A DNA stretch of 64,000 bases. Source: Girardia tigrina (taxonomy: Eukaryota). Below are positions 18,607 through 64,000 of the stretch, one piece after another. The stretch is from NCBI GenBank assembly GCA_001938485.1, contig MQRK01228140.1, positions 1-64,000 of the forward strand. Reading direction: 5' to 3'. How positions within the stretch are numbered: the first letter of the stretch is position 1; each line of letters starts with the position of its first letter. Below the pieces are notes generated by a model, which searched no databases, was not told where the DNA came from, and worked only from the letters and a program-made list of their open reading frames with translations. The translations under genes were made by a program, and so were the position numbers.

Positions 18607-18713
18607 ATTGTCCGCGCTGAATTGTCGCCTCGCTAAATTGTCGCTTCGCTGAATTGTCGCTTCGCTGAATGGTCGCATCGCTGAATTGTCCGCGCTGAAT
18701 TGACGTGGATCCG
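18607..18713. repeat. ~16-bp tandem repeat (CGCTGAATTGTCGCTT) x6, likely a DNA-transposon subterminal array
   Basis: Direct reading; ends in GTGGATCCG. Confidence 0.8.
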
Positions 18714-39233: not shown

Positions 39234-40216
39234 AAAAATATTTGATACTTTATAGTTTAAATTAAAACACTAACCTAAAACCGATCTGTAATTTTTTGCA
39301 CTTTCTTTTAATAAAATGTTCTGTCTTTATGCTTTATATTTCTTTAATATTTTATTTTACTACACAAAGCAATATAACAAAATTTCGTTTAAATATACGT
39401 AAATCATTACAAATTATAAATTCAATTCAAATTCTTTTGTTTCTCTTAAATTTAAAGACTTTTAAAAAAATATTATTTCTACTACAATCAATTTTTATTT
39501 ATTTATTATTTCCTGAATAGTGTAATGTATACTCTTAGTCTTATGGTACAAACTGTTTAATTTAAAAAACATTTTATTTTGGACTAATTTTTAATAAAAA
39601 TTACGAAATTAAATATATTGTTAAGTGATGTTTTGACGCTTTGGCATTTCGTTGCAAATATTTTGGTAAAAATGTCAAGATTGTACAAAAACTTCGTACA
39701 AAAAATCATACAATTGACAAAAAAAATTAAAAAAAAGATTAGGGAACTTTTTAAAGACAATAAAAATACATGAATTGATGTAAGAACTTCATTAAATAAA
39801 AAATATAAGAATGCTAATTAAATGACAGAACAAGCAGAGGATTATTAAATAGCTTTTATTAAAAGTAGAAATCAGAGCACATTTTCCCCTTCTTTTTATA
39901 TACTTGCTTTCGTGTCATCTTGTCCCATTTCCAGCATCATTTTGTAATTTTAACCTACTTCCCATGATGCTATGGAATTGAAATTTTCAAGGTAGTTGTA
40001 TTTTGATATAACGTATCGATTGAACAATCTTTTCAAGTGCTTTGTTACCACCCGATCAAACAAAAAGTAATAAAACAAATTATATCACAATTTTTATCTC
40101 ACCAATCGATAAAAATCGACAAGAAAAATTCGTTTTTAGTGCACTCTATCGAAAAAAGGGTTTTTAAAATTGTTTTTCAATGTGTTATATTATTTCATTA
40201 CACACTGAAGATGATA

Positions 40217-42838
40217 TTAGGTTGGTCGAAAAAATAATGGCGGTTTTGGGACACAAACTTCAAAGACGTGCAAATTCACAGAAACAAAAGTTTATTAATC
40301 AAAGTATGAACCGTTGGCATCAATACATTTTTACCAACGAGAAACAAGTTGTTTTATTCTATCAGCATAAAATGCATCGGTTCTCGAAGCGACGAATTCT
40401 TGGAAGACATTTTGAGCATCATTTTGGTTTTTGAAAATTTTTTCACGTAGGAAGTTATACAAATGCCTGAAAAAGTAGACGTCCGTTTGCGAGAGGTCTG
40501 GTGAATATGGTGGATGAAGCAGGGTTTCATAGCCCAACTCATTAAGCTTTTGAAATATGAGGTCTAGCGTTATCATGAAGAAGGATGGGACTTTTTCGAT
40601 TGACCAATCCCGGACAAAGGGTTTTCAATTTTTTTGCTGGACAGGAATCCGTGTCTCCATGTTTTGGAAAGAGAAGAATTGTCTTTCAATTTATCATTTA
40701 AAGCACTCAGAGATTCTCCTCGTAGAATTACATCGTTAATTCTTTTCACCCTAATTCATTGAATATCATTCAAATTAGAATTAATTTGATTAAAGCTTAT
40801 TGGTGTTCGGGTGTAAACAGAAAATTAGTTCAAACTCGAATAGTCGAAGAACATTTTCCTTGGAGACTTTCTCGAAAACAGTATTAACACCAAAACCTAT
40901 CTGTTCGTGAAAACGACACACGTTAACGAGAGTATTCAGATTTGTTGCATCTAATTTGTCAAAATAATTCAGAAAAATGTACACCGCCGACCAATTATTG
41001 GCTGTTATGATTTTATTTATTTTTTTAAGAAGTCACTGGAATCTCTACACGATACGTTTATATTATCTTTCTCTTGAAATTCCAATTTGTATAAGATCTC
41101 ATTATATAATTTTTTAGTTTTTTTTAAATTCATTTAAACACTGACAAATTCTCTTTTTTTTAAATTGATTTAATTGTTTTAAAATTTTTTATTCCAACTT
41201 TCATTCAAAATTTAACTCACTTTTTTTAACCGAAATTGTTTTATTGTGACAAAATTTACATTTTTTAAAGACACACATGCACACCCAATTCACCAATCAT
41301 CACAAACATGCACACGACATTCCTGCACACACGTAATCATATTGGCAGAGTGAGTTAACCAAAAAAAGGAGGCTCACCATTTAATTTAAAATTTCCTCGA
41401 ATTAATCTCTCACATAATTACACATTAGTCAAACCATCGATTGATTTTGAAAATTATTTACGCATATATGTCGTTAATAATTCTTTTGAGGCGCTTGAAT
41501 TTTTTAATTCACTCGAATCAATAGATCGATGAGTAACAAATCGGAATCGGTGTCTATTTTCTGTCGACAGAAACCGTTAAATGATTAAAATATCTAGCCG
41601 TGTATCATTAAGAAATTGATGAATCTATTCGCGGATTCAAGGAAATAAATTCTGAACAAGATGTGATTGTTGACAATTATAGAAATATGAAAGAAAACAG
41701 CGATCAAATAAATCAATTCACTCATTTCTTTTGTTGTTTCTTTTTTAATATATTGCTTTTTTTAATTTAATTTATTTTATTTATTTAAACTTTTTTAATT
41801 ATTTTCTTTTATATAATTTATTAATTTAATTATATATTTTATTTATGAATTCCTGAAACTGGCAAAAATGTTCGGTCAAATCAGCAATTCTCCGCTCCAT
41901 ATGCATTTCATCAATTTCATGACAATACCTCTCCTGGATTCAAGAAACTAGTGGATGATTCCAGCATCACACCACCAAACTGTCACCATAACCTTACGGG
42001 GTGTTAGTTTCGGTTTTGGAAAGTGTTTCGGTACTTCATCTTTGTCCAACCACTGTGAAGATCGACGTCGGTTATCATAAAGGATCCATTTCTCATCACA
42101 GGTAACAATACGATAAAGAAATGGATCGTTTTTATTGCGAAGATGATTGACAGAACAAATTTCATAGCGTCGGTTCTTTTGATTTTCATTCAAATCATGT
42201 GGAACCCATTTATCAAGTTTCTTGATTTTTCCAAGTTGTTTTCACCAAGTTGTTTTCACTTAGTTGTTTTCACCAAGTTGTTTAAACTTATATACATATC
42301 AACGTAGATAAACAAAGTATAAAGCTCAAAAACCACCATTATTTTTCAATGATCCAGGACTGTTGAATGACTAATGCCCAACCCATCTGCAAGTTCTCTG
42401 ATTGTTGTACGGGGATCTGTTTCCACCATTGTCCTCAAATTGTCGTTCTTCACAGCAACTGGACGACCACGACCTTTTTCATCTGCAAGGTTTTCATCTC
42501 CATCAGAAAATTTTCGGAACCATCGTTGCACTGTGCGCTCAGAAGCTGTTCCCTAGCCAAACGCTTTATTGATATTGCGAGCCATTTCTGCTGCTTCCGA
42601 CCCAGTTTAAATTCGTACAAGAAAATTGCTCGAATTTTAATTTTTTCCATTATTAATTTAGCACCGTAAATATTCTAAAAAATAACAGCAATATGTTAAT
42701 AATGGCTATAGGAATATACAGCTAGGCATAAGATTTCAAATAATATCTAACACTAATGCATTTAAACTTATATACATATCAACGTAGATAAACAAAGTAT
42801 AAAGCTCAAAAACCACCATTATTTTTCGACCAACCTAA
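40217..42838 (-). mobile_element. Mariner DD34D, interrupted by a cargo element
   Basis: TIRs TTAGGTTGGTCGAAAAAATAATGG / CCATTATTTTTCGACCAACCTAA with TA; TCDEKW, LLHDNARPH, HPPYSPDLSQTD. Confidence 0.93.
40638..41899 (-). mobile_element. TGGA...TCCA element copy 2 (ORF-X cargo), TSD TTTGC/TATGC
   Basis: Same ~45-bp and ~165-bp termini as copy 1; splits mariner EIDEMH/KKLKTL; degenerate ORF at about 40790-41132. Confidence 0.87.
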
Positions 42839-44349
42839 TATATTAATTTATTTATATGATGAAAAACGTCTGTTTTGGAATAAATATAATAATAAAGGGT
42901 TTTTTTTAAAAACCTGTAATTTGATTTTATGTATGTTGAACAAAAAATTTTGTTATTCCAAAACACTGCTCATCATAAACCAAGATTCATCTTGGTCCTG
43001 AGAAATTTATAAACATTTCTAATTGTTTTCGCTTTCCTTCGATTAGTTGATTAATTTTATTTAAGTAAGAAGAAATTGGTGGAAACACTTCCCATGTTAT
43101 AAATATCATAATAATTATTATATAAATATCTGGATGGGCCTAAAGATGCGACCTGACCCGTCCCGGCAGTAAACATTACCGACATAAAATTCGGTTTGAC
43201 TGGTCGCCGGTTCGACAGTTCCACTCGTGGGNNNNGACCAAAGCGGGCCAAATATCTGCAGTGATTATTTTCTTCGCATTTCGTTTCATGTGAATTATCG
43301 AATGACTGGCGTTTCCGTCCGTTGACAGAAGAACGGGATCGTTGAATCGGAACACAGTCGAATCGAATTGGTGAATGCATTTCGCCAAATCACAAAAGAT
43401 GCAATCAGTCATTGAAGAAACACCGGTTAATGATTCTCGTGGATTTGATTTTTTGTTTGTGAAAATCATTTTAGAAAATCTTTCGGTTTAATGTGAAACC
43501 AGAACGAACGAATTTAACTTTAAAAGAAATTAAGTCGAAAAAGCATTTTTTTAAAGTTTTATTTAATTACTTAAATCATTAAAACAATATCGTTTTTTTT
43601 ATTATGGAATAATTTTTACACGAAAATTAACTTTTTTTATATTGAAAGAAAGTAAAATATTTTAACACAAAAAAAATATTTATTTTACAATGAGTATTTT
43701 TGTTGTGTTTTTTGTTTTTCCACAATTTCCAAGGCAGTGGCATTCATACCATAACCCTACTATAAGAACTATTTTACATATATCTATTTTATTTGTAACA
43801 GAATTGCACCTCAGGGTAATTTAAAAAAATACTATATCGATGATGTAGTTCCCTAATTATTTAGGAAATATAGTTAAAATTTTTAATAAAAATTTCTGTA
43901 TCTATGTGAGCATATGTTTTCTTTTCTATTTAATGGAGTATTCGGGGAGGTATTATATAATTTTCGTATGGAGGTACAACATTCCGTGCATAGTGACATT
44001 GCGTCATGCGGGAAAATAATGTAAGGCGGTAAATTTTAAAAATTAACTGCTGGAATCACTGACTGTAACCAAACTGAAATTCACTGTAATCAATCACCTA
44101 TTACTACAATTCAAAAGTCGCTAAAATTGTGGTAATTCATCGAAATCATATGAACATATAATTAGCCACACAATAAGTAAATTAAGGTTGTTGGGAGAGT
44201 TGCTGAGTTCATAAAATTTTTGAATTTACAATCTTATAAAATTAATAATTAAACAATTACATTCCGTAAAATATTGTTATTGTTGCGGCAGCAGTGCAGT
44301 GGAAGCACTTTTTTTTATTCGCCTTCGAAATGGATAGAGGACGTTCGTT

Positions 44350-44693: not shown

Positions 44694-45365
44694 GTCACCT
44701 TCAATCAGCATGCAGTCAATCACGTATCGATCGAAGTTCCCGTCCCATATGTCATTAATTGTATGAACGCGCTGACTGACTTGGGAATATTTGCCTATAT
44801 TTCTGAACACTTGATCTCCACTCTGCAAATTGAGGTAGGTATCGAATGGCGATGCCAGCAGAAATCGTGTCTATAAAGTCAAGGAACTCTTAACGATTAT
44901 TTCATTCACGATCACAAAATCGTCGATAACGTTCTCTAAGATCCGATTGTATACGTAGATCAGAACACAATTACCAATTTTATCCAATATTTTATTGGAA
45001 AAGCACTTGATCATCGTTTAACAAGAAATAATTAAAATTAATTTTAAGGAAATTAAAATTTCAATCGATTCGTAAATATTTTATGTTCCGCACGACATTC
45101 AGGTTGCCCCGAGAATCGGACGGATGCAGCAGGGTTGCACAGGGAAACTTTCTCGTTCTAAGTTCCTGATTATTACCATAATCGACACTAAAACCTAATT
45201 TCTGAACTTGTCTAAATACCGCTTGGCAGAAATGAAAATTGTTTTGATGAATCACTGTTTTGGAATTCGCTGTTTTGAGAATTCGCTGTTTTGTAATTCT
45301 CTGTTTTGATGATTCGCTGTTTTGACATTCGCTGTTTTGTAATTCGCTGTTTTCAGGTATAACCG
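44690..45365 (-). mobile_element. MULE/Mutator transposase remnant with a 17-bp subterminal repeat array
   Basis: FHFCQAVFRQVQKLG motif; (TTCGCTGTTTTG) x~7 at 45240-45355 ending GGTATAACCG. Confidence 0.7.
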
Positions 45366-45863
45366 TTTAGTATGTTGTTTTAGGATTGTGTTTCTCCCAC
45401 CCAGATGGAAGATTGATATTTTAAATATTTTAAAACGTCGGGTTGTTTAATCAATTATTAAAATTTAAATAATCACTTTAAAANNNNNNNNNNNNNNNNN
45501 NNNNNNNNNNNNNNNNNNNNNNNNNNNNNNNNNATTTAAATAATCACTTTAAAATTAAACTAATATTTCATAAAAAATATTTTAATAATATTTTCTTAAA
45601 ATAAATAAAAATTATTTTAAATTTAAATTATAAATAATTTTTGTAATAATTAAATTGTATTTTAAATTTGTTTGAAAAATAAGAGGCTAAAGAATATTAT
45701 TAAAGATTAGCAATCAAGAACGATGACGAGCTACACATTAATATTTTTAATATTTTATATATTTTATATAAAAACTTTTGTATTAATTTACCTTTCTTTG
45801 GCTTTAAAAACTAAATAATAATAAAATATTTGGGCAAAGTGCAAATTTAAACTTACTCCTCAT

Positions 45864-46509
45864 CTAGAGTTTGAAAGCGAGTGATTGTGATAGAATGTTT
45901 TGTATACAATTTGAGAGCATTTTGTGAACTTTCTTAATTCTTTTCTTCTGAAACTCTAAATAGACAATCGTGTTTGGCGATAATATTACTGGAACACTGA
46001 TGAGATACGCCATTTGTCCATAGGTAATTTTGAGAAAGATATAATTTTTGAGGAGCATTTCAGCGATTAATAAATGCTTCTCTAATTTAACTAGCTCAAG
46101 AGGAGTTTTATTGTCATTATTGTTTGATTCGAGAATACAATGTCTTTTGAGCAACAATTTAACTATTTCTATATATCCATTTTTACAAGCAATATGAATT
46201 GGTGTATCACCATTATTGTTTTGTATGTCTACATTACATTTCTTATCAAGAAGTAATTTAACTATTTCTACATTTTCATTTTCACAAGCATTATAAATTG
46301 GTGCCTCACCATAATTGTTTTGTACATCTACTCTACAATTCTTATCAAGAAGTTTACTTATTTCTTTACTTATATTCCAACAAGCAAAATAAATTGGTGT
46401 GTCAGCATTTTTGTCTGTTACATCTACATTACAATTCTTATCGAGAAGTAATTTAACTACATCTAAATTATTTTCTTGACAAGCGATAGAAATTGGTGCA
46501 TCGCCATAT
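45864..46509 (-). pseudogene. Start-less ankyrin-repeat paralogue of the ANK-RING gene (4 repeats + cap, different C-terminus, no RING)
   Basis: Open frame YGDAPISIACQENN...TPIYFACWN...APIYNACEN...TPIHIACKNG...LEFQK, preceded by in-frame TGA. Confidence 0.85.
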
Positions 46510-46519
46510 CATTGCAAAG

Positions 46520-49305
46520 TAAATTATTGCAATGTAATCATAATAAATAATATTCAGCTAACGGATAAATTATAGAACGACTTTTGAAAATAGGATGATA
46601 TATTTTGTAATAAAATCTAAAATTAAAATGAATCTGTAAAAGAAATTATTTTGATATATTTAAAAAATATAAAAAATTAATTTAAAACAATGTTTTAATA
46701 ATATTTAATGAAAATATATATTATTTATATTAGTAAAAACAAAAATTGTAAAAATTAAAATAAACTTTTTAAAAATATTTGTTTTATACATTTAAAATGA
46801 ATAAATAAAAATTTTCATTTTTAAAATAATTATTCACAAAATATGTTTTATGTAAAAATATTATTGTATCTTTTTTGAATTTTAAGTTTAAAAAAGTATC
46901 TATCATTTAATAATAAAATAAACATAAATTAATGTATTTAATATAAAAATTATGATATCTATTATTTTTTAATTTAATAATAACTATGCGTTATATTTTT
47001 AGAATAAAAAAGTACAAAAATAGAGATTAAAATTTATGATAATATTTGAAATTTATTATTTTTTGCTATAATCATATAAATGTTATGCAGTATATTTTTT
47101 TAATTAAATTAATGAATACTTTATTGTCTCTTCATTGAGAACATTTAAGTAGTGTAAAAACAAAGAAATAAGTTTTTTTATTTGTATGACAATATTCTAA
47201 TTTAAATTTAAAATATATTTTCGTAATATAATTGAAATAAATTATTATTTAAAAAAAATACTTTTTAAAAATAATAAAAATGAGATTTAAAATAATTTGT
47301 ATTATTTTAATTGATTATAAATAAAAATGCTTTAATGATTTAGAGTATGAAATATTATTTACGATATATAAATTAGAAATCGAATTAAAATTATTCTTAA
47401 TTTTGAGTTTTAAAATATTTAATCATGATTTAAAAAATAGTATTGACAATTATGACCAACGAACCATATTAAATATTTTGAAAAGTGTATTATAAATAAA
47501 TGATTATGATTTAATGGCTTTAATATATTTTGGTAAATGTTTTTGTAAATTGCAATGTTTTAAGTGATATTAATTGAAACTTCATTTTTCCATTTTTTTC
47601 ATTTTACTATTTTTTTCTTCCTAAAAAATGAATATTGATCAAATAAATGAAAGATTAAAACATTTTATATTTTATAAAATAATAGAAATGAGTATCATAA
47701 AAAAGCAGCTGCATTTCAAAATGAAGGGATCCCATTTAAAAATTTTGTCGATCAAATTGAGAAACCTATAATTAATGTAGCTGAAAATAAAAAAGTGATT
47801 ACTATAGAAGGTTATTTAACTAAAAAAAGCACTTGAAATAGAAGGTGATAAAAAAATAATGGCAATTGAACGACTTAAAGATGAAACAGACATACAAAAT
47901 AATACTAATAATATTGTTGGGTTAATCTGATGTTTTAAATATTTATAAAAAACCTCAATTGATTTTATAAAAAATATATTTTTATGTACAGTTTAATTAC
48001 AAGAAAAATAATGTTGGGGTATTAGAGTGATCGAACTTTATTAAAATGAAAATTAAAAAGTCGATAAGTATTTTACAATTATTTATTAAAAATTAAATCG
48101 ATTTAAAAATTACTGGAAGAGAGTAACGTGTGAGGCCTCATTAATAAGATCCATGGATCAAAAAATTAATATTCAAGCTTCACATTCAATTTTTCTGTTA
48201 AACATTTTCAAATAGTACATTTATTACATAATCATCATTCTCATATACAAGCTACAAAACTAATGTTAATTTAGTCTGAAGATGGCGGGTAATCAACCGA
48301 TATTAATAAAAATAAATTTTTATTTATTTTCATAATACACTTTTCAAAATATTTAATATGGTTCGTTGGTCATAATTGTCAATACTATTTTTTAAATCAT
48401 GATTAAATTTTTTAAAACTCAAAATTAAGAATAATTTTAATTCGATTTCTAATTTATTTATCGTAAATAATATTTTATACTCTAAATCATTAAAGCATTT
48501 TAATTTATAATCAATTAAAATAATACAAATTATTTTAAATCTCATTTTTATTATTTTAAAAAATATCTTTTTTTAAATAATAATTTATTTCAATTATATT
48601 ACGAAAATATATTTTAAATTTAAATTAGAATATTGCCATACAAATAAAAAAAACTTATTTCATTGTTTTAACACTACTTAAATGTTCTCAATGAAGAGAC
48701 AATAAAATATTCATTAATTTAATTAAAAAATATACTGCATAACATTTATATGATTATAGCAAAAAATAATAAATTTCAAATATTATCATAAATTTTAATC
48801 TCTATTTTTGTACTTTTTTATTCTAAAAATATAACGCATAGTTATTATTAAATTAAAAAATAATAGATATCATAATTTTTATATTAAATACATTAATTTA
48901 TGTTTATTTTATTATTAAATGATAGATACTTTTTTAAACTTAAAATTCAAAAAAGATACAATAATATTTTTACATAAAACATATTTTGTGAATAATTATT
49001 TTAAAAATGAAAATTTTTATTTATTCATTTTAAATGTATAAAACAAATATTTTTAAAAAGTTTATTTTAATTTTTACAATTTTTGTTTTTACTAATATAA
49101 ATAATATATATTTTCATTAAATATTATTAAAACATTGTTTTAAATTTATTTTTTATATTTTTTAAATATATAAAAATAATTTCTTTCACAGATTCATTTT
49201 ATTTTTAGATTTTATTACAAAATATATCATCCTATTTTCAAAAGTCGTTCTATAATTTATCCGGTAGCTGAATATAATATATTACGATTACATTGCAATA
49301 ATTTA
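46520..49305. repeat. ~975-bp inverted repeat arms (46520-47493 / 48332-49305) around an ~840-bp spacer
   Basis: Near-identical reverse-complement match, e.g. TTATAGAACGACTTTTGAAAATAGGATGATA versus TATCATCCTATTTTCAAAAGTCGTTCTATAA. Confidence 0.92.
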
Positions 49306-49742
49306 AATCGATTTGAGTAGTCATTATCCTTTATATCATATAAAATAACAGAATATTTCTATTAATATTTTCCAATAATCAATAGTATCTCGTTTGAGAA
49401 ATAAGAGAATGCAAAGAACTGATTTAAGATCAAGATCTGTTTTCATTTTAATAATATATTTAAATTATTTTTTAAAATTAATTGCGAAAAAAACATTTTT
49501 ACCTTTATTATCATTACATATTAATTTATTACATCGATGATTAAAGTTTTCTAAAAAATAAATCTTGTAAAATATAGAATTGTACAAGTGTGATAAAAAA
49601 CTATATTATTGAAAATATTTTTTAAGGGTACCATTTAAAAATAATTTAGGTTTTAAAAGCCAATCAAATTTGATCGAAATATAATTTTATTATTTAATAG
49701 TCTCTTGAAAACAATATTATTCACAAATTATAACTATTCACA

Positions 49743-52700
49743 ATGTTTGTAAAGTTTTTAAAATCAGAGAAGACGAAATGTAATTATTCATCAATACATT
49801 TTGCTTGTACGAAAGGACAAAAGGAAATGGTAAAATTACTTCTTGATAAGAATTGTAATGTCGACGAACAAAATGTACTAGGTAAGGCACCAATTCATAT
49901 TGCTTGTCAAAAAAATAATGTAGAAATAATTAAATTACTTCTCGATAAGAATTGTAATGTAGACTTAACAGACAAAAATGATAACACACCAATTCATATC
50001 GCTTGCCAAAATGAAAATGTAGAAATAATTAAATTACTTCTCGATAAGAATTGTAATGTAGACTTAACAGACAAAAATGATAACACACCAATTCATATCG
50101 CTTGCCAAAATGAAAATGTAGAAATAATTAAATTACTTCTCGCTAAGAATTGTAATGTAGATGTAACAGACAAAAATGATAACACACCAATTCATATTGC
50201 TTGTTGGAAGGGAAAAAAAGAAATAATTAAACTTCTTTTTGATAAGAGTTGTAGTGTAGACGTACAAAACAAATATGGCGATGCACCAATTCGTATAGCT
50301 TGTGAAAATGAAAATGTAGAAATAGTTAAATTACTTCTCGATAAGAATTGTAATGTAGATGTAACAGACAAAAATGATAACACACCAATTCATATCGCTT
50401 GTCGAAATGAAAATGTAGAAATAATTAAATTACTTCTCGATAAGAATTGTAATGTTGATGTAACAGACAAAAATGCTGAGACACCAATTCATTTTGCATG
50501 CTGGAATGGAAATAAAGAAATAATTAAACTTCTTCTTGATAAGAGTTGTAAAGTAGACGTACAAAACAAAAATGGCGATGCACCAATTCATATCGCTTTT
50601 CAAAAAAATAATTTAGATGTAGTTAAATTACTTCTCGATAAGAATTGTAATGTAGATGTAACAGACAAAAATACTGACACACCAATTCATATCGCTTGTC
50701 GAAATAAAAATGTAGAAATAGTTAAATTACTTCTCGATAAGAATTGTAATGTGGATGTAACAGACAAAAATACTGACACACCAATTCATTTTGCTTGTTG
50801 GAATGGAAATAAAGAAATAATTAAACTTCTTCTTGATAAGAGTTGTAAGGTAGACGTACAAAACAAATATGGCGATGCACCAATTCATTTCGCTTGTCAA
50901 AAAAATAATTTAGATGTAGTTAAATTACTTCTCGGAAAGAATTGTAATGTAGATGTAACAGACAAAAATGCTGACACACCAATTAATTTTGCATGTTGGA
51001 ATGGAAGTAAAGAAATAATTAAACTTCTTCTTGATAAGAATTGTAGAGTACATGTACAAAACAATTATGGCGAGGCGCCAATTCATATAGCTTGTGAAAA
51101 TGAAAATGTAGAAATAGTTAAATTACTTCTCGATAAGAATTGTAATGTAGATGTAACAGACAAAAATGATAACACACCAATTCATATTGCTTGTCGAAAT
51201 AAAAATGTAGAAATAGTTAAATTACTTCTCGATAAGAATTGTAATGTAGATGTAAAAAGCAGATATAGTGACACACCAATTCATATCGCTTGTCGAAATG
51301 AAAATGTAGAAATAATTAAATTACTTCTCGCTAAGAATTGTAATGTAGATGTAACAGACAAAAATGATAACACACCAATTCATATTGCTTGTCGAAATAA
51401 AAATGTAGAAATAGTTAAATTACTTCTCGATAAGAATTGTAATGTAGATGTAAAAAGCAGATATAGTGACACACCAATTCATATCGCTTGTCGAAATGAA
51501 AATGTAGAAATAATTAAATTACTTCTCGATAAGAATTGTAATGTTGATGTAACAGACAAAGATGCTGAGACACCAATTCATTTTGCATGCTGGAATGGAA
51601 ATAAAGAAATAATTAAACTTCTTCTTGATAAGAGTTGTAAAGTAGACGTACAAAACAAAGATGGCGATGCACCAATTCATATCGCTTTTCAAAAAAATAA
51701 TTTAGATGTAGTTAAATTACTTCTCGATAAGAATTGTAATGTAGATGTAACAGACAAAAATGCTGACACACCAAATCATTTTGCTTGTTGGAATGGAAAT
51801 AAAGAAATAATTAAAGTTCTTCTTGATAAGAGTTGTAGTGTAGACGTACAAAACAAAGATGGCGATGCACCAATTCATATCGCTTGTCAAAAAAATAATT
51901 TAGATGTAGTTAAATTGCTTCTAGATAAGAATTGTAATGTAGATGTAACAGACAAAAATACTAATACACCAATTCATATCGCTTGCCAAAATGAAAATGT
52001 AGAAATACTTAAATTACTTCTCAATAAGAATTGTAATGTAGATGTAACAGACAAAAATGATAACACACCAATTTTTATGGCTTGTTGGAAGGGAAATAAA
52101 GAAATAATTGAACTTCTTCTTGATAAGAGTTGTAAAGTAGACGTACGAAACAAAAATGGCGATGCACCAATTCATATCGCTTTTCAAAAAAATAATTTAG
52201 ATGTAGTTAAATTACTTCTCGATAAAAATTGTAATGTAGATGTAACAGACAAAAATGATAACACACCAATTCATATTGCTTGTCGAAATGAAAATTTAGA
52301 GATAGTTAAATTACTTCTCGATAAGAATTGTAATGTAGATGTAAAAAGCAGATATAGTGACACACCAATTCATATCGCTTGTCGAAATGAAAATGTAGAA
52401 ATAGTTAAATTACTTCTTGATAAGAAATGTAATGTAGACATACAAAACAATAATGGTGATACACCAATTCATATTGCTTGTAAAAATGGATATATAGAAA
52501 TAGTTAAATTGTTGCTCAAAAGACATTGTATTCTCGAATCAAACAATAATGACATTAAAACTCCTCTTGAGCTAGTTAAATTAGAGAAGCATTTATTAAT
52601 CGCTGAAATTCTCCTCAAAAAGAATATCTTTCTCAAAATTACCAATTCACAAATGGCATATCTCACCAATGTTCCACTAAGATTATCACCAAACACGATT

Positions 52701-53162
52701 GTCTATTTAGAGTTTCAGAAGCTTTCTTCTTTGGATAAATCACAACTGTGTAGAAATATTCAAGATTTGGCTTTGAAATGGTACATGGATAACAAAAATA
52801 GTTTTCTAAATCTTTATGTTATGCATTTCAAAAAGCAAAAAAATATTGTACTCTTGAAACAGTATAATAAATTATTTGCATTAATGGGTCCGATGGAACG
52901 AAATTGTTTGGAGGAGCCTTACCAAAGCATCAAAAAACACAGATATCGTTTTGCTAAGCGACATCATTTTCTGACAAAAAATAAGAAAATAAGTATCAAA
53001 ATATCAGAAAAGATGTGTACTGTTTGCTATACTGAATCAGTCAAAATAAGAATAGATTGTGGTCACATATTTTGTGACAGTTGTTCAAGAAGTCTCAATA
53101 AATGTCCTGTGTGCAATTATTCGTTACAGAGTAAAAACAATTTTATTGAGATTAATATATAA
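49743..53162 (+). CDS. Intronless ankyrin-repeat (28 x 33 aa) + C-terminal C3HC4 RING protein, putative E3 ubiquitin ligase
   Basis: 1139-aa ORF; TPIHIAC...EIVKLLLDKNCNVD repeats; CTVC...CGHIFCDSC...CPVC RING. Confidence 0.93.
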   Translation: MFVKFLKSEKTKCNYSSIHFACTKGQKEMVKLLLDKNCNVDEQNVLGKAPIHIACQKNNVEIIKLLLDKNCNVDLTDKNDNTPIHIACQNENVEIIKLLLDKNCNVDLTDKNDNTPIHIACQNENVEIIKLLLAKNCNVDVTDKNDNTPIHIACWKGKKEIIKLLFDKSCSVDVQNKYGDAPIRIACENENVEIVKLLLDKNCNVDVTDKNDNTPIHIACRNENVEIIKLLLDKNCNVDVTDKNAETPIHFACWNGNKEIIKLLLDKSCKVDVQNKNGDAPIHIAFQKNNLDVVKLLLDKNCNVDVTDKNTDTPIHIACRNKNVEIVKLLLDKNCNVDVTDKNTDTPIHFACWNGNKEIIKLLLDKSCKVDVQNKYGDAPIHFACQKNNLDVVKLLLGKNCNVDVTDKNADTPINFACWNGSKEIIKLLLDKNCRVHVQNNYGEAPIHIACENENVEIVKLLLDKNCNVDVTDKNDNTPIHIACRNKNVEIVKLLLDKNCNVDVKSRYSDTPIHIACRNENVEIIKLLLAKNCNVDVTDKNDNTPIHIACRNKNVEIVKLLLDKNCNVDVKSRYSDTPIHIACRNENVEIIKLLLDKNCNVDVTDKDAETPIHFACWNGNKEIIKLLLDKSCKVDVQNKDGDAPIHIAFQKNNLDVVKLLLDKNCNVDVTDKNADTPNHFACWNGNKEIIKVLLDKSCSVDVQNKDGDAPIHIACQKNNLDVVKLLLDKNCNVDVTDKNTNTPIHIACQNENVEILKLLLNKNCNVDVTDKNDNTPIFMACWKGNKEIIELLLDKSCKVDVRNKNGDAPIHIAFQKNNLDVVKLLLDKNCNVDVTDKNDNTPIHIACRNENLEIVKLLLDKNCNVDVKSRYSDTPIHIACRNENVEIVKLLLDKKCNVDIQNNNGDTPIHIACKNGYIEIVKLLLKRHCILESNNNDIKTPLELVKLEKHLLIAEILLKKNIFLKITNSQMAYLTNVPLRLSPNTIVYLEFQKLSSLDKSQLCRNIQDLALKWYMDNKNSFLNLYVMHFKKQKNIVLLKQYNKLFALMGPMERNCLEEPYQSIKKHRYRFAKRHHFLTKNKKISIKISEKMCTVCYTESVKIRIDCGHIFCDSCSRSLNKCPVCNYSLQSKNNFIEINI

Positions 53163-54199
53163 TTTTCAATAAGGATTGACAAACAACGGTGTCACAAACC
53201 TCTGATAACTTACGTTGGAACATCCAGTGTGATAATCGATCATCTGAAAACGTTTTTCTATTCATTCAGTTTTTGTGTTTAAATATTAACTTATTTGTGT
53301 GTAATACTTGAAACTCTCATTGTGTTTGAAAATTGTGAATAAATAAATTTCTATTTCTTTTAATTTCAAATGTTAAATTAAAGAATTTATTGAATGAAGA
53401 TTGTTTATCCCAATCAATCGTGAAGAATAATTAGTTTATATTATAGTTTTTAAATAGTTTATAATAAATTTAAATTAATTTGAATAATTAAATTAATTAT
53501 TTAAAATCATTTATAATATTTAAAATAAGTATTTCAAATAATAAATAAATGTGATTAGGTATTTTTTTGCTTATTTTATTGGCTTTTTGTGAATGTCTGG
53601 TAAGTGTATGTGTGTATTGTGTGTATGATATATTAATAATTGATTGATTGAAAGTGTGTGTGTTATGTGAGTGATAATTTTGTTATTGTGAATTGTTATC
53701 ACACTTTAAATCAATTTTTTAAAAGACAATTTAAATCAGTTTGTAAAAAGAGAATTTGTCAATTTAAAAAAATAAATAAAGGAATTTAAAAAAGTTGTCA
53801 GTGTTCAAATGAATTTAAAAAAAAGATGAAAAATTATATAGTGAGATCTTATACATAATTGGAATTTCAAGAGAAAGATAATAAAAACGTATCGTGTCGA
53901 GATTCCTTTGACTTCTTAAAAAAATTAAATAAAATCATTAGAGCCAAAAATTGGTTGGCGGTATACATTTTTCTGAATTCTTTTGATAAATTACGAAAAT
54001 TTGATGCAACAAATCTGGATACTCTCGTTAACGTGGGTCGTTTTCCAGAACAGAGTAGTTTTGGTGTTAATATTATCACTATACTGATTTCAAGAATGAC
54101 TCCAAGGAAAATGTTCTCCGACTATTCGAGTTTGAACTTATTTTCTGTTTACACCCGAACACCAAATAAGCTTTAATCAAATTAATACTAATTTGAATG

Positions 54200-57100
54200 T
54201 GTTGCGTTAGAATCAAACTTTAATATAAAACATATAACATAAAATTTGAGTATCGATTTAAACAAAATAATCAAAAGATCGCAAAACACATAAAGATAGA
54301 GAATTCACATGAAAATATAAGAATTACAATAAATAAATAATAAATAGCGCAAGAATAAACACAAAATGATACAAAAAACATAAATATCGATAGAAAAATG
54401 AATATTTACGAGACAATAATCGACAAAACCGGAATAATAAACGAAATCAAACAGGAAAAAATCCGACAAAATTATTATAAAATCTAGAATAATTTTACGA
54501 ACAAAACAAAATAAAAATTACGAAAATCCATTAAGAATTCGCAGAGAAATAGCAAAATTGAAGTAAAAATAATAAATAATAAATCAATAAATAACGATTA
54601 ATGAACGGATTTGGATGAAATAAACAAATAAAATAGTCGGAAAAAATCACTAAAATACTCGTAAAATACCAAAAGATAATAAAAGATAATAACCACATCG
54701 AAAAACGAGAGAAAATAGCAAGTAAATACATAAATTGGAACATCGCCAAATAAGGAAGTAACGATGAAAATCTCACAAAATGAAGACGAAAAATTCATAA
54801 AATAATCGGAAAATCAAGGAAAAATCAGCAAGATACAAAAACACCGCAATCAACACTAATCGACAAAGATTTCGAAAGAAAATAATTAAAAATTAATAAA
54901 ATTGTATTTTACTGTAATACTGTGATCAAAAAACGCAAATCTGAATGTAAATCGATCGATAAAAACGGAAAAAAATCGTAAAAATTATGATAAAAATTAT
55001 GCGATAGAAATCATGAAAAAAAGCGCAGTGAAAATAGAAAAATACAAAAAGAAACATAAAAAATCAATTAAATCGAAAATCATTCAAAATAATCAATCAA
55101 TGAGTCCAATATTATGCGGACGCCACTGAAACAGATTCCAATCGATTTAGAGTAACGTAAAAAGCTGCAAAAACGCAATAATGATAAATATCCATCGAAG
55201 CCGCAATAAATTATAAATTGAAAATATATCAAACAGAATGAATTAGATGTGGTAAAAATCTGAAAAAAATTCAAACAATCAGGAATAAACAGATTAACGG
55301 AAATAATCGAACTCCGCATGAAAATCCGACTGAAATCGTTGTGAAAAATAAAATCCGACGAAATCACGCCCATAACGAATATCGGCCAAATTAGAAGATA
55401 ATTCGAAACTCATAATCAATTAACGTGAGGATCACTGAAAAACACAATTACCAAAAATCCTGAAAGGTAAAATCAAAAGTTTCAGACAAAAATCAAAATT
55501 TCAATCAAAAATCAGAAAAAGTTAAAATCAAATTTAAATGAATGTATCAATAAAATAAAGTCCTCACTCTCCTCTGGATCGTCGCAGAGGCAGGCCTTTA
55601 CATTATGCCGGCTCCAGGAGGTAAAAAACGAAATAAAATATATGAAAGATAAAGGTCATTCAAAAAATGTAAATTTCACTCACTTTGAAACGGAATTTCC
55701 GCATTGGATTTTGAGTGCGCGCGCGGAGCATCGTCACTGACATAATGCAATTGATCCGAATAAACAATGATGCTCTGAAGGTCCGGAAAAAGGCTGAAAA
55801 GATTATCAAAATTAGTAAAATTAAAACAAAACAAATGTACTTACCGGATTAATCATCGATCCAAAATTTTCTAAATTTTTTAATTCTAGAAAGTCCAAAA
55901 ATGGAACTGACATGTTCCAATCAAAATTTGTCGTACGATTCCAAAACGTACGTGGACCAATTAAGAATTAACACGCGACAATTTTAGACTGAAATCCCAG
56001 TATAAATACTGAACAGTTTTAGACAAAAATCAGACTTAAAAATCAGAATAAAAAATTGAGAACGAAAATAGAATAGTTTTGAGAATAAAAAATTGAATAT
56101 TTTTGAGAACAAAAACTAGACAATTTTTAAAGACAATTCTTGGTATTGTTAAAATTTTCGCGTCCGAGAGAGAAAGTAATGGATTACTCTCTCTCTCTGG
56201 TCCCGAATTTTTAATTTTTATCCCTACAAACGGTCGGTCATCCGCTTTTTTATGTTTTTATTTTTATGTTAAATCGTTTTACTGCACAATTATAAATATT
56301 TCATAACCATTTATTTTATGTTAATATTTTTTTTGATGATCAATTTCAGCTCGAATACCCTCGGGTAGGATAACGTTTAAAATCATTTTATTCAAAATGA
56401 AATTCTTGAAGGCTGGTTCCGGCATGCGTGTTAGCGCGGCCAGTATAAGTCCCCGGATTATGAAGCCTCTGAGCGATATAAAAACTCAAGAATTCATACC
56501 GGAAGGCAGTTTCGGAATCCGACTGCAAATCTGTTTGACCGCTTACGTAGAATAGGGATTAAATAATTAATCAACAACTCGTATTATAACTGTTATAATT
56601 TTAGATGATACAACAGATAGAACTGCTGGAAGCTAAGCGAACAATTGAGAAATTGCAGCAAGAAAATAAAATGTTAAAGAGAGTCAGGGCGACAGATCGC
56701 AAAGAAATACTGAACCTGCGAGATAGCGTAGAGCGCTTATCACTGAAGTTGAGAGTATCGAAGGAATCTTCTATAGAGCCTGAGGAGTATGCTCGTGTAG
56801 TGAGACGAGGTGTAGTAATGGAGAGCCGAATAAGAGAGCTCGAGTGCCTTTATTCTGAGCAATTTCAGATCCGCATGAGAGAAAAGCTAAGGCCCGACGA
56901 AGGGAAAGAGTCGCGCACCTTAGGAACTCAATGGTGTATCGCGGATTATTGAGGTGAGGACTATGTGAATAGGCGAAAGCGTCAAAGGCTCCTTAAGAGC
57001 ATAGATAATGTTGTAAAATGTTTTTCAAAATAAAATTTTTTAATGGGTTTATATGAGTTGTTGATGTATTATTTTAAAATATAACATGCACTGATTAGTT

Positions 57101-57650
57101 TAAAATTTTGTTAGCATTTCTTTCTTCTTCTATAACTCTTTATCTTGACACCAAAATCATACAAATGAATGGAGGATTTGCGTTAGGGTATTCGAGCCCA
57201 TACTTTTGTAAATAAGCTTTATAATTAAAATAATAAAAGCTGAAATGTTGTCATAGATATCATACCTGTTAAGGGGTTTCAACATACCAAGATATAACAT
57301 ACAGTAGCTGGGGTCGAGACAACACATCATGGGGTTACTACATTAATGAAAATCGTTTTAATTTAACATCACATCATACCCATGGGGGCTGATCTGGTCT
57401 ATCTGGTCTTAAACCTGTGTAGATCTGGAACCTGGTAGGTCCTCATTACTTATCACTACATGCAGATGGTATGTTGGGTGAGAGGCAAGTTTTGGTCATA
57501 GACATCGAGAGATTAAGAGTTAAACTATACATGCAGGGACTAAATTAGTATGATAGTGTTTTATGGTTGGTTACCGATAACCTGGGGGCTCAAAGCCAAA
57601 ATCTCCCAAGATATGTTCACATGTTTTAAAACACCACGAACGCCACAACA
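54200..57650. mobile_element. 3451-bp TGTTG...CAACA insertion (long solo-LTR-like) with 4-bp TSD AATG
   Basis: Excision restores ATTTGAATGATATTC as seen in copy 2; TATA box at 56001; no transposase or pol. Confidence 0.82.
56179..57033 (+). pseudogene. Four-exon coiled-coil gene inside the LTR-like element, with two in-frame stops
   Basis: Exons 56179-56232, 56350-56364, 56412-56546, 56605-57033, all phase 0 with gt-ag introns; TAA in exon 1 and TGA at 56950; C-terminal RRKRQR. Confidence 0.65.
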
Positions 57651-57913
57651 AATGATATTCAAAGAATTATGGTGAAAAGCATAAACGATGTATTTCTACG
57701 AGGAGAATCTCTGAGTGCCTTAAATGATAAATTGACAAATAGTTCTTCTATTTCCAAAACATGGAGACACGGCTTCCTGTCCAATATGTTTATACCATAA
57801 ATAATAATAGTAACATAAAATCATTTTATATTTTTCTTAATCTTGAGTCGTATTAACGCTAATTAGATATAGTTCCAATATAATTTACTTAAAGCTCGTT
57901 TTAAAATATAATC

Positions 57914-57963
57914 ATTGTACATGTTTCGATTTCTTTCACATCATCATCATCAGCGCAGCAATT
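57914..57963 (-). ncRNA. Degenerate minimal hammerhead in a Penelope-like terminal remnant
   Basis: Minus strand CTGATGA...GAT-n9-ATC GAAAC AT GTA CAAT; downstream GACTCAA motif as at about 11812. Confidence 0.6.
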
Positions 57964-58193
57964 ATTATTTGAAATGAATGTCCCTGGGTTTTAAGAAAAC
58001 GATTGTAAATTTGTTCTTACCTCGGAGAGAGCGTAAGCGGATATATCTTATTTCAGGGTCTTAGACAAAAACCCCACAACATATATATCCCCTAACAAAA
58101 ACCACTGAAACAAAGAATTTGAATCTATGTACATTTTTATCGGATTTTGTTACGGATGACCGGCTAACATTTGAGTGCAGTATACTTCCTCAT

Positions 58194-58231
58194 CCTAACC
58201 CTAACCATAACCCTAATCATAACTCTAAACC
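58194..58231. repeat. Degenerate (CCCTAA)n telomere-like tract next to a hAT-like TIR (CAGTGTTTCCGAACC at 58232)
   Basis: CCTAACCCTAACCATAACCCTAATCATAACTCTAAACC. Confidence 0.6.
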
Positions 58232-58449
58232 AGTGTTTCCGAACCTGGGCAATATCGCCAAAATTTGGCGATCAAAAATAATTTATGGGCGATGAAAAGT
58301 GAATGCAGAATTAGTGGGAGATTTTTAATTTCACAATTCAACATTTATAATTCGTTAATTTATTGAAAATGTTACGACAGTTCTTATAATAAATTCCAAT
58401 TCATTTTTTTAAACTTTTATTTGATATTAAATTTCTGATCTACTGGGTG

Positions 58450-59537
58450 GCTCCACTTCTGTCGAGACGTTGCATTTTGAGTGTTCACAGCCTGTAAGAG
58501 ACTCTTCATATTCTTCTTCAATTTTATTCACGAATCTTCGATTATCTCCTAGTCTTCTGTCTTCTATATCTCGATATCTTGGTTGATTGTATCCTAATCC
58601 TCGATAGTTATTGTCACCTGTATTTTGCTATCGTCTTCTGCCATTTAGGTTTGTATAGCATTTACTTTCACTGTGGCCTTTATCTTGACATCTTTTGCAT
58701 TCGATGTTTGGACAGTTTCTTCTTATGTGTCCCTGTTGTCCACAACCATAACATTTTATTGGTCTCCTTTCCGAATAATTTCTTATCCTGTGTCCTTCAT
58801 TTCCACATCCGAAACACTTGATTGGTTTTCTTTGTCTACACGTTTCACTTACGTGACCTACTTTTTCACAATTACTACATTTGACGGTTTTCCTGCCTTG
58901 AGCGTATTCTGTAGTATTTCTACCAACCGCTGTATGATTTTGTCAGTATTTACTGTCTCCTGTTACTGCTCCTCTGTAACTCCGCGTCTGTTTTGCATCC
59001 CCTGGTCTCTTACTACATTCACGTCTTGTGTAACACTTTTGACGTCATGTACTGCCTTTATCTTTTCTTTTAACTCATCTATTATTTCACTTTGTTAAGT
59101 CTCATTTCCTTCTTTATGTCCACATCATCACAACAATGTAACAATAATGCTTCCGTGAGGGCCTCTTTTGAAAAGTCATGTTTCAAGATCTTGGCTGTGA
59201 GCTTTTCTACTTTCTCACAAAATACTTCCGGTATATCTTCCTTCATCCTGTACCGGCATGCCTCAGTCAGGTCTTCGAATAATGAGGAAGTTCGAGAGAA
59301 TGCTTTTCTCAATCGGTCTTTATAACCTACTATTGTCTTATCTACCGCTTTGTATTCATCTTTCAGATCTCTGTCCAACAAACAAACGACTATTGTCTCT
59401 TGTTTGGCCTTCGCTATTCCTGCAAAATTAAAGAATATTTCACATTCTTCAATAAATGTCTCCACATTATCGCCTTTCCTGTACTTTTCAGGTAACAGTT
59501 GACCAGTGAAAATATTCATTGCAGCGTTAGTCGCCAT
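58450..59537 (-). pseudogene. Gypsy gag remnant with four CCHC-type zinc knuckles
   Basis: PEKYRKGDNVETFIEECEIFF...; CSNCEKVGH, CFGCGNEGH, CYGCGQQGH, CKRCQDKGH. Confidence 0.85.
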
Positions 59538-60145
59538 GTGAAAAATAAAAAATGATATAATAAGACAACTATTAAAAAATCAAAAACGTTTTTAAAAATA
59601 AAATATTTTTAATGTGTTTTTAAATATATTAAAAAAATTAAAAATGATATAATAAAAGAAAATCATAAAAAATTAAACATCTATTTAAAAATAAAAAATA
59701 TCTTTTAATCTATCTATTAAATATCTTAAAATTAAAAATGTTAAGAAAACTATAAAATATTAAGAATAATATATTAAATAATATATTAAGAAAACTATTT
59801 TCGATTTTAAAAATATTTGAATTATCCATCGAATTATTCCAATTATTGTGAATATTAAAAAAAAATATTTTTTATTAATAATCACAATTTATTTTCTTGT
59901 GAGGATATCAGTTTGTAAACCTAATAACATTATAATTACTAATAAGTAATTAAGTACATAGCTATACAAATGTACCACGTAGCAAATGCTGTTATTCTCT
60001 AATATTTAATATGATGTTTATGATACAGCCTTTTCAGGGGGCGTGGCCATATTGATTAAATTATTTGGTAAATAATTATTCGATGCCATTTTAGATTTTA
60101 CAGTCTTAAAATTAATAATAATTAAACAAATAAAAAAACCTTGAA

Positions 60146-62527
60146 ATGAAGAAAATCTCAAGTTTTTTCCCAGCTGCTGCTCCGGTAAGCAAACAATTGA
60201 AACAAGAACTTGCGGAAGGTAATGATATACAAACGACAGTCTCAGAAAAAAACGTGTGTAGGCGATGTAGACATAGACTCGGACAATGATCAGTCAAGTT
60301 GTTGGACATTGGAGCAAAAATTAAACTTCTGTGAAAGATATGAGTGGCTGTGCGTTAGAAGAAAAATGCTCGGCTGTAAAGTCTGCCGAAAGGTTGGAAC
60401 ACTTGACATAGAAGCAAAAATGGGCATGAAAATATCGAAAGAATGGACTGATGACGAAGTATCTTGTTACGGAGATGAAAAAAGAAACAACAGAATTCAC
60501 TCGGAAAGAAAATTTTGCATCACAAGGAATCTGCTGGACATCAAACTGCTGTAAAGATAGTAACAGAAGCAGAAAAGGAAAAGCTTGAATACGTAGTTTA
60601 AAAAATTAATCATTAACATTAAATCATTAACACGTGAGAAAACAGTAAGGGCTAAAATTTTTCGCACTACGTACAAAGTTGCGAAACGAAATCAGTCATT
60701 TAATAACTTTGAAATGGAAACTGATTTACAAGAAATGAACGGGATAGACATGGGTCGCATTCTACATTCGACAAATGAATGCATTAATATTGTGAACCAT
60801 ATAAGCACTGAAAGGAGACAGAAGCTGGTCAAATAAGTGGTTAATTCCAAAAGTAAAACGTCACTGATGATCGATGAATCTACGACATTGAGCGGAAAAT
60901 CAACCCTTATAATATACTTGCGAAGTTGTATAGAAGGCACTGAAATGAAAGAACCAGTAAATTTATTTCTGGACTTAGTCGAACTTCAAAGTGTCACAGC
61001 CAACGGAATCTTTACTGCTTTACTAGACTGTCTTAAATATTACGGGATTGGTGAACTATTTAGTTTCTGTTACATGTGATGGTGCATCTGTCATGTTCGG
61101 ATGCAGAAGTGGAGTAAAGAAGCTACTCACTGATAAATTTCCATCGGTGATATTCTGGTACTGTGCTAATCACAGACTTTAACTATCAGTAGAAGATACC
61201 GTAAAGGACTTTTCGGGAGTAAATAGATTTAAATCATTCCTTGATAAGCTATACGTAATATACCATGCTTCTCCAAGAAATAGTAGAGAACTGCATTCAT
61301 GTGCAAAATTACTTGGAGTAGAGTTATTGAAAATTGGACGGGTTTTAAGTACGCGATGGGTTTCTTCAAGTTTCCGTGTAGAGTTTCATGTTTGCAATAA
61401 TTATGCAGCTCTGATAAATCATTTTGAAGAAGCAATGACAAGAAGTAACAATGAGAAATGTACATATGAAGGTTTGAAGAAGAAAATTGCATCAACTGAA
61501 TTTGTGATGGATCTTGGTCTGATGTGTGATGCTCTTCAAGAGTTATCTGAATTTAGCTTGGACCTACAACAGCGAAACATGAATCTTTACAAAGTAAATC
61601 AAAAAATAAAATCACTCTAACAGGTGTTCGTGGAACGAAGGGAAAATCCATGCCCATTCTACAGGAATGTAACAGCAGCTGCTGAGCATCTAATATTTAA
61701 TGAATTTGTACTACACAACAGAAACTGCAAAAATGACCATCCTATTGATGCAAATGTCTTTTACGAGAAACTTAGCGAATCCATTGCGAAAAGATTACTG
61801 TCTAATGAGGATGTTGAACTAGCTCAATGGACTAGCATACTAGATCAGAGCCATTGGACAGATAACATGAACAACCAGTTGACATTTGGAGAAGCGGAAA
61901 TTGAGAAATTGTGTAGCAGGCTACAACTTAATGCAAGAGAAATCATTCATGGATTCGGTGATTATCTTACGGAAAGAACATATTCTTAAAGAATTCTTCC
62001 TCTGACATATGCTCTTAATACAATTTCCATTTCTTCCAGCGAGTGTGAAAGTGGATTCTCACAAATGAATTTAATAATCACCCCAACGAGAGCTTCGCAT
62101 ATGATAAAATTAATCTCGGAACTTTTATTCATCAGAATGGTCGGCCCTCTATTAACATATTTTGATCCTAGAAAGTACGTAGACTCTTGGCTGCTTCGAG
62201 GCAAAGCAAGAAAAGAAATCGAGATGATTTGTCTGATGAAAACATGAGAAAACTCTGGAAATTATTTTAAAGCCCAATACGGTACAGTATCATAATACAA
62301 TAGAATACATTTGTGATTTTTCCACATAAACTTTAGTCAGGTCGCTTTTAATTATAAATAAACTCTTTGAGTCTCTCATTTACTTATAAAAAAACGTTTG
62401 TCTTTAAATTTCCTGTAAAATAAATTTGTGTTCAGTGGGAAAATTCAATTATAGTACTTTCTAACATAAGGTAAAAACACATATAAAATGAGTTCCCAAA
62501 CCTTTTTTTATTAGAAATAAAGCACTG
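60146..62527 (+). mobile_element. hAT transposon (ZNF862-like transposase pseudogene), right TIR present
   Basis: LGCKVC, SLMIDESTT, CDGASVMFG, CANHRL, TRWVSS, SSSECESGFSQMNLI; ends AATAAAGCACTG. Confidence 0.88.
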
Positions 62528-64000
62528 TATTTACTTAATAAAATCTTTTAACAATATACATTAAATTGAATACTAAAATTTTTAAATCCCTTATTAAATT
62601 AATTAAATATCGAATCAAATACAACTAATTGATTAAAATACCTGAATTAAGATAATTAAAAAAAGATGAATTATTAACAAAGTCGGTTTGTATACATTTG
62701 TATCACTAAATCAATTACAAATTATTATTAACAAAAATAAAGCTTTGAATGTAATCAAAATAGTTATCAAAAAATGACTGCAAATGATACTATTATACAC
62801 TATCTCCTTATTTTACACTAGTATTCCATTAATTAATCTCACAATTATTATTGTTCCTATTCAGAAAATTCTTTCAAAAGCATATGAACTGGAATACTCA
62901 AAACTAAGTCATAAATATTTCAAAATAAATATAATTCTTCTAAAATATTGTTTGACGTATGCATCTATAAATGTTTATGGTAGAATCAAATTAGAAAGGG
63001 ATGGCGGACCAAAAAACTGAATGAAATTATTTTAGATGAGGCAAAAAAGTATATTTCATCTTGATATAAAGAATAATTATTGAAATTCTAATATCAGAAT
63101 GAAGAGAGTAAACAATATATAATTGACATGGTTCCTCTGTATAATTTCAAAATTTTATTTCATTACAAATTTCTGTTTTTTAAACAAATTTCTTAGGAAC
63201 ATTGTTTTCTGTTCACAATCATTAATAAATAAGTGTAAAATAAGCATGAAAACATTTACCTTTTAATTTTACAATCATAAAATTTTCTCAATTTTATAAT
63301 TTGACACTTAAATTTACAATTTTAAGTTAAAACATTCATAAAATTTTCGTAAACAACGAAAACATGTTAAATTGGTATATTTTTCAGGCTGATAACGAGG
63401 TGCTAAGGATGAGAACTTTATCATATTGAGCTCATAGAAATTTGCTGAAGGAAAAATGCAACATACGAAGTCATGTAAGTTCTTATTGCACATTTTTATT
63501 GCATTTGGCTTTCTTTTAGGCAAGTTAACAAAATTGAAAATCGATATTTATTACTATTCTAGCATCTCAGATGTACCTATCTCGTCCTATGGGTTGTTGT
63601 TAGTTAGCAAACAACTGGTCTACGACAGTGTAATAGTGACAAAGACAAAAAAATCCTACATTAAATGTCTAAAATAATGTACTTAATTCTCAGAGCGAGA
63701 ATATAACCGCTAACTCGAAAATAAATCTTTGTAAATAATTAAAAAATTAGGAATTGGACGAAGCTGAAATATTTTTTAATAACCGATCTAGGAAATACAA
63801 AGTCACTCGTTATTTTCTCAAAACATTAAGACAAAAATTGAACATTTATTACACATAAATCTACAAACATCTAAATCAACGATCCGCTTAAAAAGTGTAA
63901 CCTATGATTCTCTTTCCGGCATCATAATAAAAACCATTTTGCTTCAAAAAGTCACTGTTCAGGAAGCTCTTGATCGACTGGATTTTCATTCGATTAGCCT

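Follow-up and report, generated by a model that had tools for sequence, protein, structure and literature searches.

A stretch of 64,000 nucleotides from the AT-rich genome of an animal, Girardia tigrina (contig MQRK01228140.1, referred to below as the window), contains an intact ankyrin-RING (ANK-RING) gene and, head-to-head with it across a pair of inverted arms, a second ankyrin frame without a start codon. This arrangement raises the question of whether the second frame is a decayed duplicate of the gene, the neighbour of a foldback-type transposon, a product of the assembly, or a working cassette from which the gene could be altered. The analysis was based on one assembly, three distant relatives of the encoded protein (P0046-P0048) and simulations. 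It favours, with moderate confidence, a head-to-head partial duplicate that turned into a pseudogene after some past exchange with its parent, which is a known kind of locus.

The protein encoded by the intact gene (Table 1) has both an ankyrin array and the residues of a C3HC4 RING. Its Pfam RING matches (E 1e-4 to 4e-3) did not reach the curated cut-offs, and the relatives P0046-P0048, with 67-70% identity to it, carry PF13920. As judged from its sequence, the product is likely to be a ubiquitin ligase. Full-length homologue searches and a search of PDB returned generic ankyrin matches only, and alignment against metagenome contigs confirmed none of 298 candidate stretches. Plant XB3/XBAT proteins and viral ANK-RING clusters, which were leads from the ESM Atlas, are alike in having an ankyrin array and a C-terminal C3HC4 RING, whereas here the 28 repeats are near-identical, the ligase is a predicted one, and the middle segment is known only from P0046-P0048. 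The entire non-repeat part of the protein is lineage-restricted in the same way, with matches to these three relatives alone. Within the array, the unit pairs 15/17, 9/25, 9/20 and 8/19 are identical at 98-99 of 99 positions, and the variation that exists is largely at concave-face positions. A motif at 49658, in the single-copy DNA before the start codon, is one that we take to be CCAAT-box-like; it is one of five such matches in the window.

The preliminary description had proposed that the distal upstream DNA of this gene is repeated in inverted orientation on its left, and this was borne out by alignment of the two arms, in which 976 columns contained 21 events (17 substitutions and four one-base indels), corresponding to 97.8% identity. 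BLAST lengthened the arms to 47501/48322. The GC content of the arms is 13%, and the lowest value among 120 windows of 974 bp was 13.2%. It had also been supposed that the arms are upstream DNA common to both genes, but the left side lacks the 437 bp that precede the real ATG, and the arms are therefore not a promoter common to two genes. There was no third arm copy within the 64-kb window, an exact search of metagenome contigs with a 25-nt arm pattern gave 0 matches, and a search of 45864-50000 against Rfam also gave 0 matches. Among the 12 sequencing runs listed for this DNA, three, from two studies, contain part of the stretch (shares 0.33, 0.27 and 0.05); the best of these may be the source of the assembly, and no RNA run was among those listed.

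The spacer between the arms contains, at 47678-47930 on the plus strand, a coding-like relic of 83 codons that has one frameshift in an A run and a possible splice acceptor before it. This relic matched no Pfam family and nothing in the Atlas, and none of its 36 homologue candidates scored; it may be a captured fragment, or the final exon of a neighbour that has since been lost. Flipping the spacer alone, which had been suggested as a consequence of the palindrome, would shift only this 83-codon relic and would move no intact gene and no proximal promoter.

Table 1. Coordinates of the features of the inverted ankyrin locus, as positions in the window
Feature	Position	Strand	Description
Read-through tail	45864..45944	-	27 codons + stop; unrelated DNA beyond the homology break
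Copy of unique capping segment	45945..46111	-	Copy of main 52555-52721; 13 substitutions in 167 nt
Tract over repeats 27-28	46112..46281	-	100% identity with main 52385-52554; may stem from conversion or from assembly collapse
Copy of repeats 12-14	46282..46509	-	Copy of main 50867-51097; 17 substitutions + one 3-nt deletion
Junction filler	46510..46519		10 nt; 8-nt inverted (7-nt direct) copy of arm end; 1561 bp missing here
Left inverted arm	46520..47493	-	13% GC, non-coding; perfect tract 46679-47094
Spacer	47494..48331		Unique, 838 bp; contains coding-like relic
Right inverted arm	48332..49305	+	Distal upstream DNA of the ANK-RING gene
Proximal upstream region	49306..49742	+	Single copy; 437 bp before ATG
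ANK-RING ORF	49743..53162	+	1139 aa; 28 ankyrin repeats, unique middle segment, C3HC4-type RING from residue 1092

Beside the left arm, the minus-strand frame 46508-45867 is stop-free over 214 codons; an in-frame TGA directly precedes it, and no Met occurs in it before codon 151. The earlier report of a stop-free ankyrin frame without an ATG was thus correct, and the frame matches the ANK-RING gene. Its first unit is of the C type and is identical at 93-94 of 99 nt to main units 9, 12, 20, 22 and 25, the second corresponds to main unit 13 (90 matches and a 3-nt deletion), the third is a 14/27 hybrid in which the switch occurs between 46282 and 46248, and the fourth is main unit 28 (99/99 nt). 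The unique 14-mers of the fragment, taken in order, map to unit 13, unit 27, unit 28 and the cap, and nowhere else. Repeats 12-13-14 had been described as joined directly to repeat 28; the match to 12-14 holds, but the join is from 14 to 27.

Overall, the left side is a collinear inverted copy of 48332-52721 from which three pieces are missing, and its order and orientation (arm, repeats 12-14, repeats 27-28, cap) mirror those of the right side. The first missing piece is 1561 bp long and comprises the 437-bp proximal upstream DNA, the ATG and repeats 1-11; the second consists of 13 internal repeats; and the third is everything after the residues LEFQK, including the RING, since the homology stops there (45945/52721). 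The fragment is therefore adjacent to its parent, on the opposite strand and collinear with it, as is expected of an inverted partial duplicate, and its ORF is incomplete, with no start, no proximal upstream region and no 3' end.

The preliminary description had assigned the fragment a different C-terminus without a RING. The homology does end after LEFQK and the RING is absent, but because everything beyond this point is missing and the tail is non-homologous, the "different C-terminus" is read-through into other DNA. No significant homology was found between the tail and the gene (1478 of 2000 DNA shuffles scored as well, as did 1022 of 2000 in the protein comparison with the main protein), and 27 open codons have a probability of 0.08 by chance. 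A look-alike pair, QSLAFKL/QDLALKL, that might have marked the tail as a distant homologous C-terminus was rejected for lack of significance, since with three queries 700-1022 of 2000 shuffles scored as well; against P0048 the tail was equalled by only 23 of 2000 shuffles, but in another frame and place. The tail starts after TTTCAG and is followed by a donor-like GTAAGT motif, letters that would be compatible with a stray exon that came from another gene and became attached here through microhomology.

The filler at the inner end of the fragment resembles a templated-insertion-like repair scar. Its 8-nt inverted copy of the arm end has a probability of about 0.015, and the outer end of the arm accordingly looks like a repair junction. 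Products of SD-MMEJ repair, which proceeds by snap-back or loop-out synthesis (PMC5728401), are similar to it. Furthermore, the near-identical unit pairs of the main array are closer to each other than the first units of the fragment are to their main partners, suggesting that part of the 13-repeat gap may be a later expansion of the main array.

These features can be accommodated by a single inverted duplication, of the fold-back or template-switch type, that would have copied at least 48332-52721, and with it upstream DNA and most of the ANK-RING gene, head-to-head about the unique spacer of 838 bp. Divergence would have followed, in which amino acids changed in both copies. The left one would have lost the 1561 bp that held the proximal promoter, the ATG and repeats 1-11, with the junction sealed by a short templated insertion, and the shortfall of 13 repeats may reflect either a deletion on the left or a later expansion on the right. 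The left copy would have been broken off at the equivalent of 52721, with loss of the RING, and would now be dead, and occasional ectopic conversion between the inverted copies would have produced two perfectly identical tracts. Young duplicates in C. elegans are often adjacent and inverted, and about 50% of them are partial or chimeric (PMC2728529). The locus resembles them in being intrachromosomal, adjacent, inverted and of kilobase scale, with an incomplete ORF joined to unrelated sequence; it differs from those described there in the internal gaps and the two perfect tracts of the copy, and in that its parent consists of a repeat array that changes fast.

In order to polarise the changes, P0046-P0048 were used as outgroups. 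In the cap (57 codons), ten residues differ between the copies, of which five are derived in the main gene, three are derived in the fragment and two are ambiguous, with pN 0.082 and pS 0.055. The 17 nucleotide differences in repeats 12-14 divide similarly (seven main-derived, eight fragment-derived, two ambiguous). Changes after the split were thus found on both copies, mostly at the amino-acid level, and derived amino acids on both sides indicate an older paralogue and not a fresh copy. The proposal of a diverged paralogue in a palindromic, head-to-head arrangement is upheld by these data.

The open frame by itself is not unusual, as it survived in 24-43% of simulations run under neutrality, in which 12-20 substitutions were the only changes made. 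The fragment has no frameshift. Altered binding residues had also been noted in the fragment, and this observation was confirmed, with six of 10 residue differences on the concave face of the ankyrin units (p=0.04; four of six, p=0.06, for fragment-only changes), where concave-face positions were defined from PMC8781854. The lean to the concave face had a probability of 0.005 by simulation, and the change of some position in all three units one of 0.10. Taken with the lack of a frameshift, the binding-face lean suggests that much of the divergence of the fragment may date from a functional phase. The lean hints at a past functional, diversifying phase and does not show present function.

The relative ages of the arms and the ankyrin copy depend on how rates are treated. 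Outside the perfect tract, the ankyrin copies differ at 21 of 133 GC columns and 9 of 261 AT columns, and the arm flanks at 7 of 84 and 10 of 472, so that ankyrin divergence is not significantly higher in either class (Fisher p 0.15 and 0.33). When the arm-flank rates were taken as fixed, 30 ankyrin differences were observed vs 16.6 expected (Poisson p=0.002), and whole-arm rates gave an expectation of 14.2; an excess under fixed arm rates suggests that the ankyrin copy may be older than the arms. A single age for the arms and the ankyrin copy is therefore allowed by the Fisher tests, although it is not proven and the Poisson comparison points away from it.

Younger arms would suit another origin of the palindrome, in which 46520-49305 is a non-autonomous foldback or Mutator-like DNA transposon with terminal inverted repeats (TIRs) of ~975 bp. 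The element would have inserted between the members of an older head-to-head gene pair, or else triggered the rearrangement, and a deletion at its left end would have taken the front of the left gene. We regard this origin as rather unlikely. Long arms of 13% GC surround a short non-coding middle with a coding-like relic, they are less diverged than the ankyrin copy, and the window is rich in transposons, all of which would agree with such an element. However, no target duplication of more than 2 nt is free of residual inverted symmetry outside it, and a TA duplication is automatic since the arms begin with TA. The sole 8-nt option lies inside the arms, with 6 nt of inverted symmetry outside, although the left end may be deleted. 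The arms contain no modular tandem repeats but only AT-rich rows of 2-5 copies (best score 54), the lack of a third copy in the 64-kb window and the lack of a Pfam or homologue match for the relic are also unfavourable, and one end of the element would have to lie no more than 10 nt from a collinear inverted copy of the gene. The foldback elements Tetris and Galileo (PMC4079207) have target duplications and internal tandem repeats. They share with this locus long TIR-like arms, a non-coding middle and a tie to rearrangements, whereas this locus lacks both an 8-10-bp target duplication and an internal tandem-repeat domain and has no other copy in the window.

Uniform neutral divergence without conversion tracts had been named in the preliminary description as evidence that would count against it. 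Divergence was instead found to be patchy, with two perfect tracts. The arm tract is 416 nt long (p ~0.0002), a length reached in 19 (plain), 49 (merged) and 17 (composition-aware) of 100,000 permutations. The tract over repeats 27-28 measures 170-178 nt (p 0.0002-0.015); for 178 nt the count was 22 per 100,000 permutations, rising to 1539 when clustered changes were merged. Purifying selection was rejected as the cause of the ankyrin tract because the tract is no more conserved relative to P0047 (35/56) than the neighbouring cap (39/57). Past conversion between the inverted copies would be the natural explanation of the perfect tracts; assembler collapse would also fit.

The latter concern extends to the locus as a whole, since two haplotypes or paralogous loci could have been stitched head-to-head, or the merging of assembly bubbles could have homogenised the tracts. 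An artefact of this kind is unlikely for the locus. For the tracts alone, which are more exposed than the architecture, it is a possibility to be taken seriously, though not the one we prefer. Five short N gaps are present in the window, and the one at 45484-45533, ~410 bp from the fragment, shows a 21-nt overlap across the gap and is probably of zero length, which suggests a short-read scaffold. Merging of similar paths in such a scaffold could make perfect tracts, and an arm divergence of 2-4% could be allelic. On the other hand, 45534-64000 is free of N, so that arms, spacer, fragment and gene all lie in one uninterrupted stretch; the left copy is set apart by junctions of its own, a 3-nt deletion and 31 differences; and the arms still differ from each other between stretches of perfect identity 55-77 nt long.

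If conversion did occur, the fragment might be thought to serve the gene, either as a maintained silent cassette that gives binding-face variants to an E3 ligase or through crossover in the ankyrin homology that flips ~6 kb and exchanges the RING end for the RING-less end. The frame is open and in register with the main gene, as a promoterless partial copy should be, a perfect tract is present, and the changes lean to the concave-face positions taken from PMC8781854. In addition, a modelled crossover in the 27-28 tract yielded a RING-less protein of 1019 aa, and one at unit 12 yielded a RING-less protein of 589 aa. Nevertheless, we consider a maintained cassette very unlikely. The fragment had been put forward as a conversion donor, but none of main units 2-27 of this one assembly has the residues specific to the fragment (S or Y at position 7, N at position 8 and E at position 12) at the corresponding sites. 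Only one copy is present in the window, with no recombinase or dedicated sites seen, the open frame and the tail length are ordinary under neutrality, and His7 is also listed in PMC8781854 as a structural TPLH residue. Also very unlikely is the full combination, an animal E3 ligase with an invertible and convertible C-terminal cassette, in which the ~6-kb flip would produce the 1019-aa or 589-aa RING-less binder and conversions would feed concave-face residues; if true, an invertebrate would be switching both substrate recognition and ligase activity in the manner of a shufflon.

Known palindromes and donor systems help to place the locus. The human Y palindromes have arms that are >99.9% identical and rarely invert (PMC3723533). 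Like palindrome P6 in that source, the locus has inverted arms about a unique spacer and patchy homogenisation, and crossover inversion is mechanically possible. Unlike P6, its arms are 1 kb long at 97.8% identity and asymmetric after deletions, and conversion, which for P6 was shown in 378 chromosomes, would have to be deduced here from a single assembly. In avian IGH, many pseudogene donors have been proposed to come from inverted duplications, and conversion was detected in transcripts that are expressed (bioRxiv 10.64898/2026.09.05.749481). There, as here, an inverted duplication led to a pseudogene able in principle to donate to a binding protein, but one candidate donor is present here and many are described there. 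The locus most likely belongs with the C. elegans-type duplicates and acts a little like the Y palindromes; any action like that of avian IGH would be hypothetical. As a partial duplicate turned pseudogene, it would be an ordinary instance of gene birth and death within an ankyrin-RING family that evolves fast and is lineage-restricted, one in which the breakpoints can be read and conversion tracts are probable. Should both orientations exist, or should the expressed gene carry codons specific to the fragment, the locus would exemplify cassette switching of an animal ubiquitin ligase and be far weightier. A narrow literature search, partly by title, returned no cassette switching in ankyrin genes or in an animal ubiquitin ligase, and no title on such an ankyrin-RING family.

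Several other features were observed in the window. Exons for the motor, lever arm and tail of myosin VI make up a spliced gene that extends from 442 to ~39230 on the plus strand and stops well short of the ankyrin locus; mariner, Tc1-like and LTR relics lie in its introns, and the window is transposon-rich. Gag-like frames with a zinc knuckle are present at 58631-59579 (-) and 60201-62244 (+), together with further broken frames that resemble a transposase relic; no Pfam match was obtained for these frames. A dispersed repeat at 40638-41299 is inverted relative to 53645-54199 plus 57651-57783 (80-91% identity), with a further piece at 27841-28015; its left copy lies inside a mariner at ~40214-42843, and its right copy is split by ~3.4 kb. 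A larger palindrome reaching out to 40638/57783 was ruled out, as these sequences are copies of the dispersed repeat. Finally, short tandem arrays of 15-16 bp with a CGCTG core occur at 45240-45353 and 18615-18702 and resemble the subterminal repeats of a DNA element.
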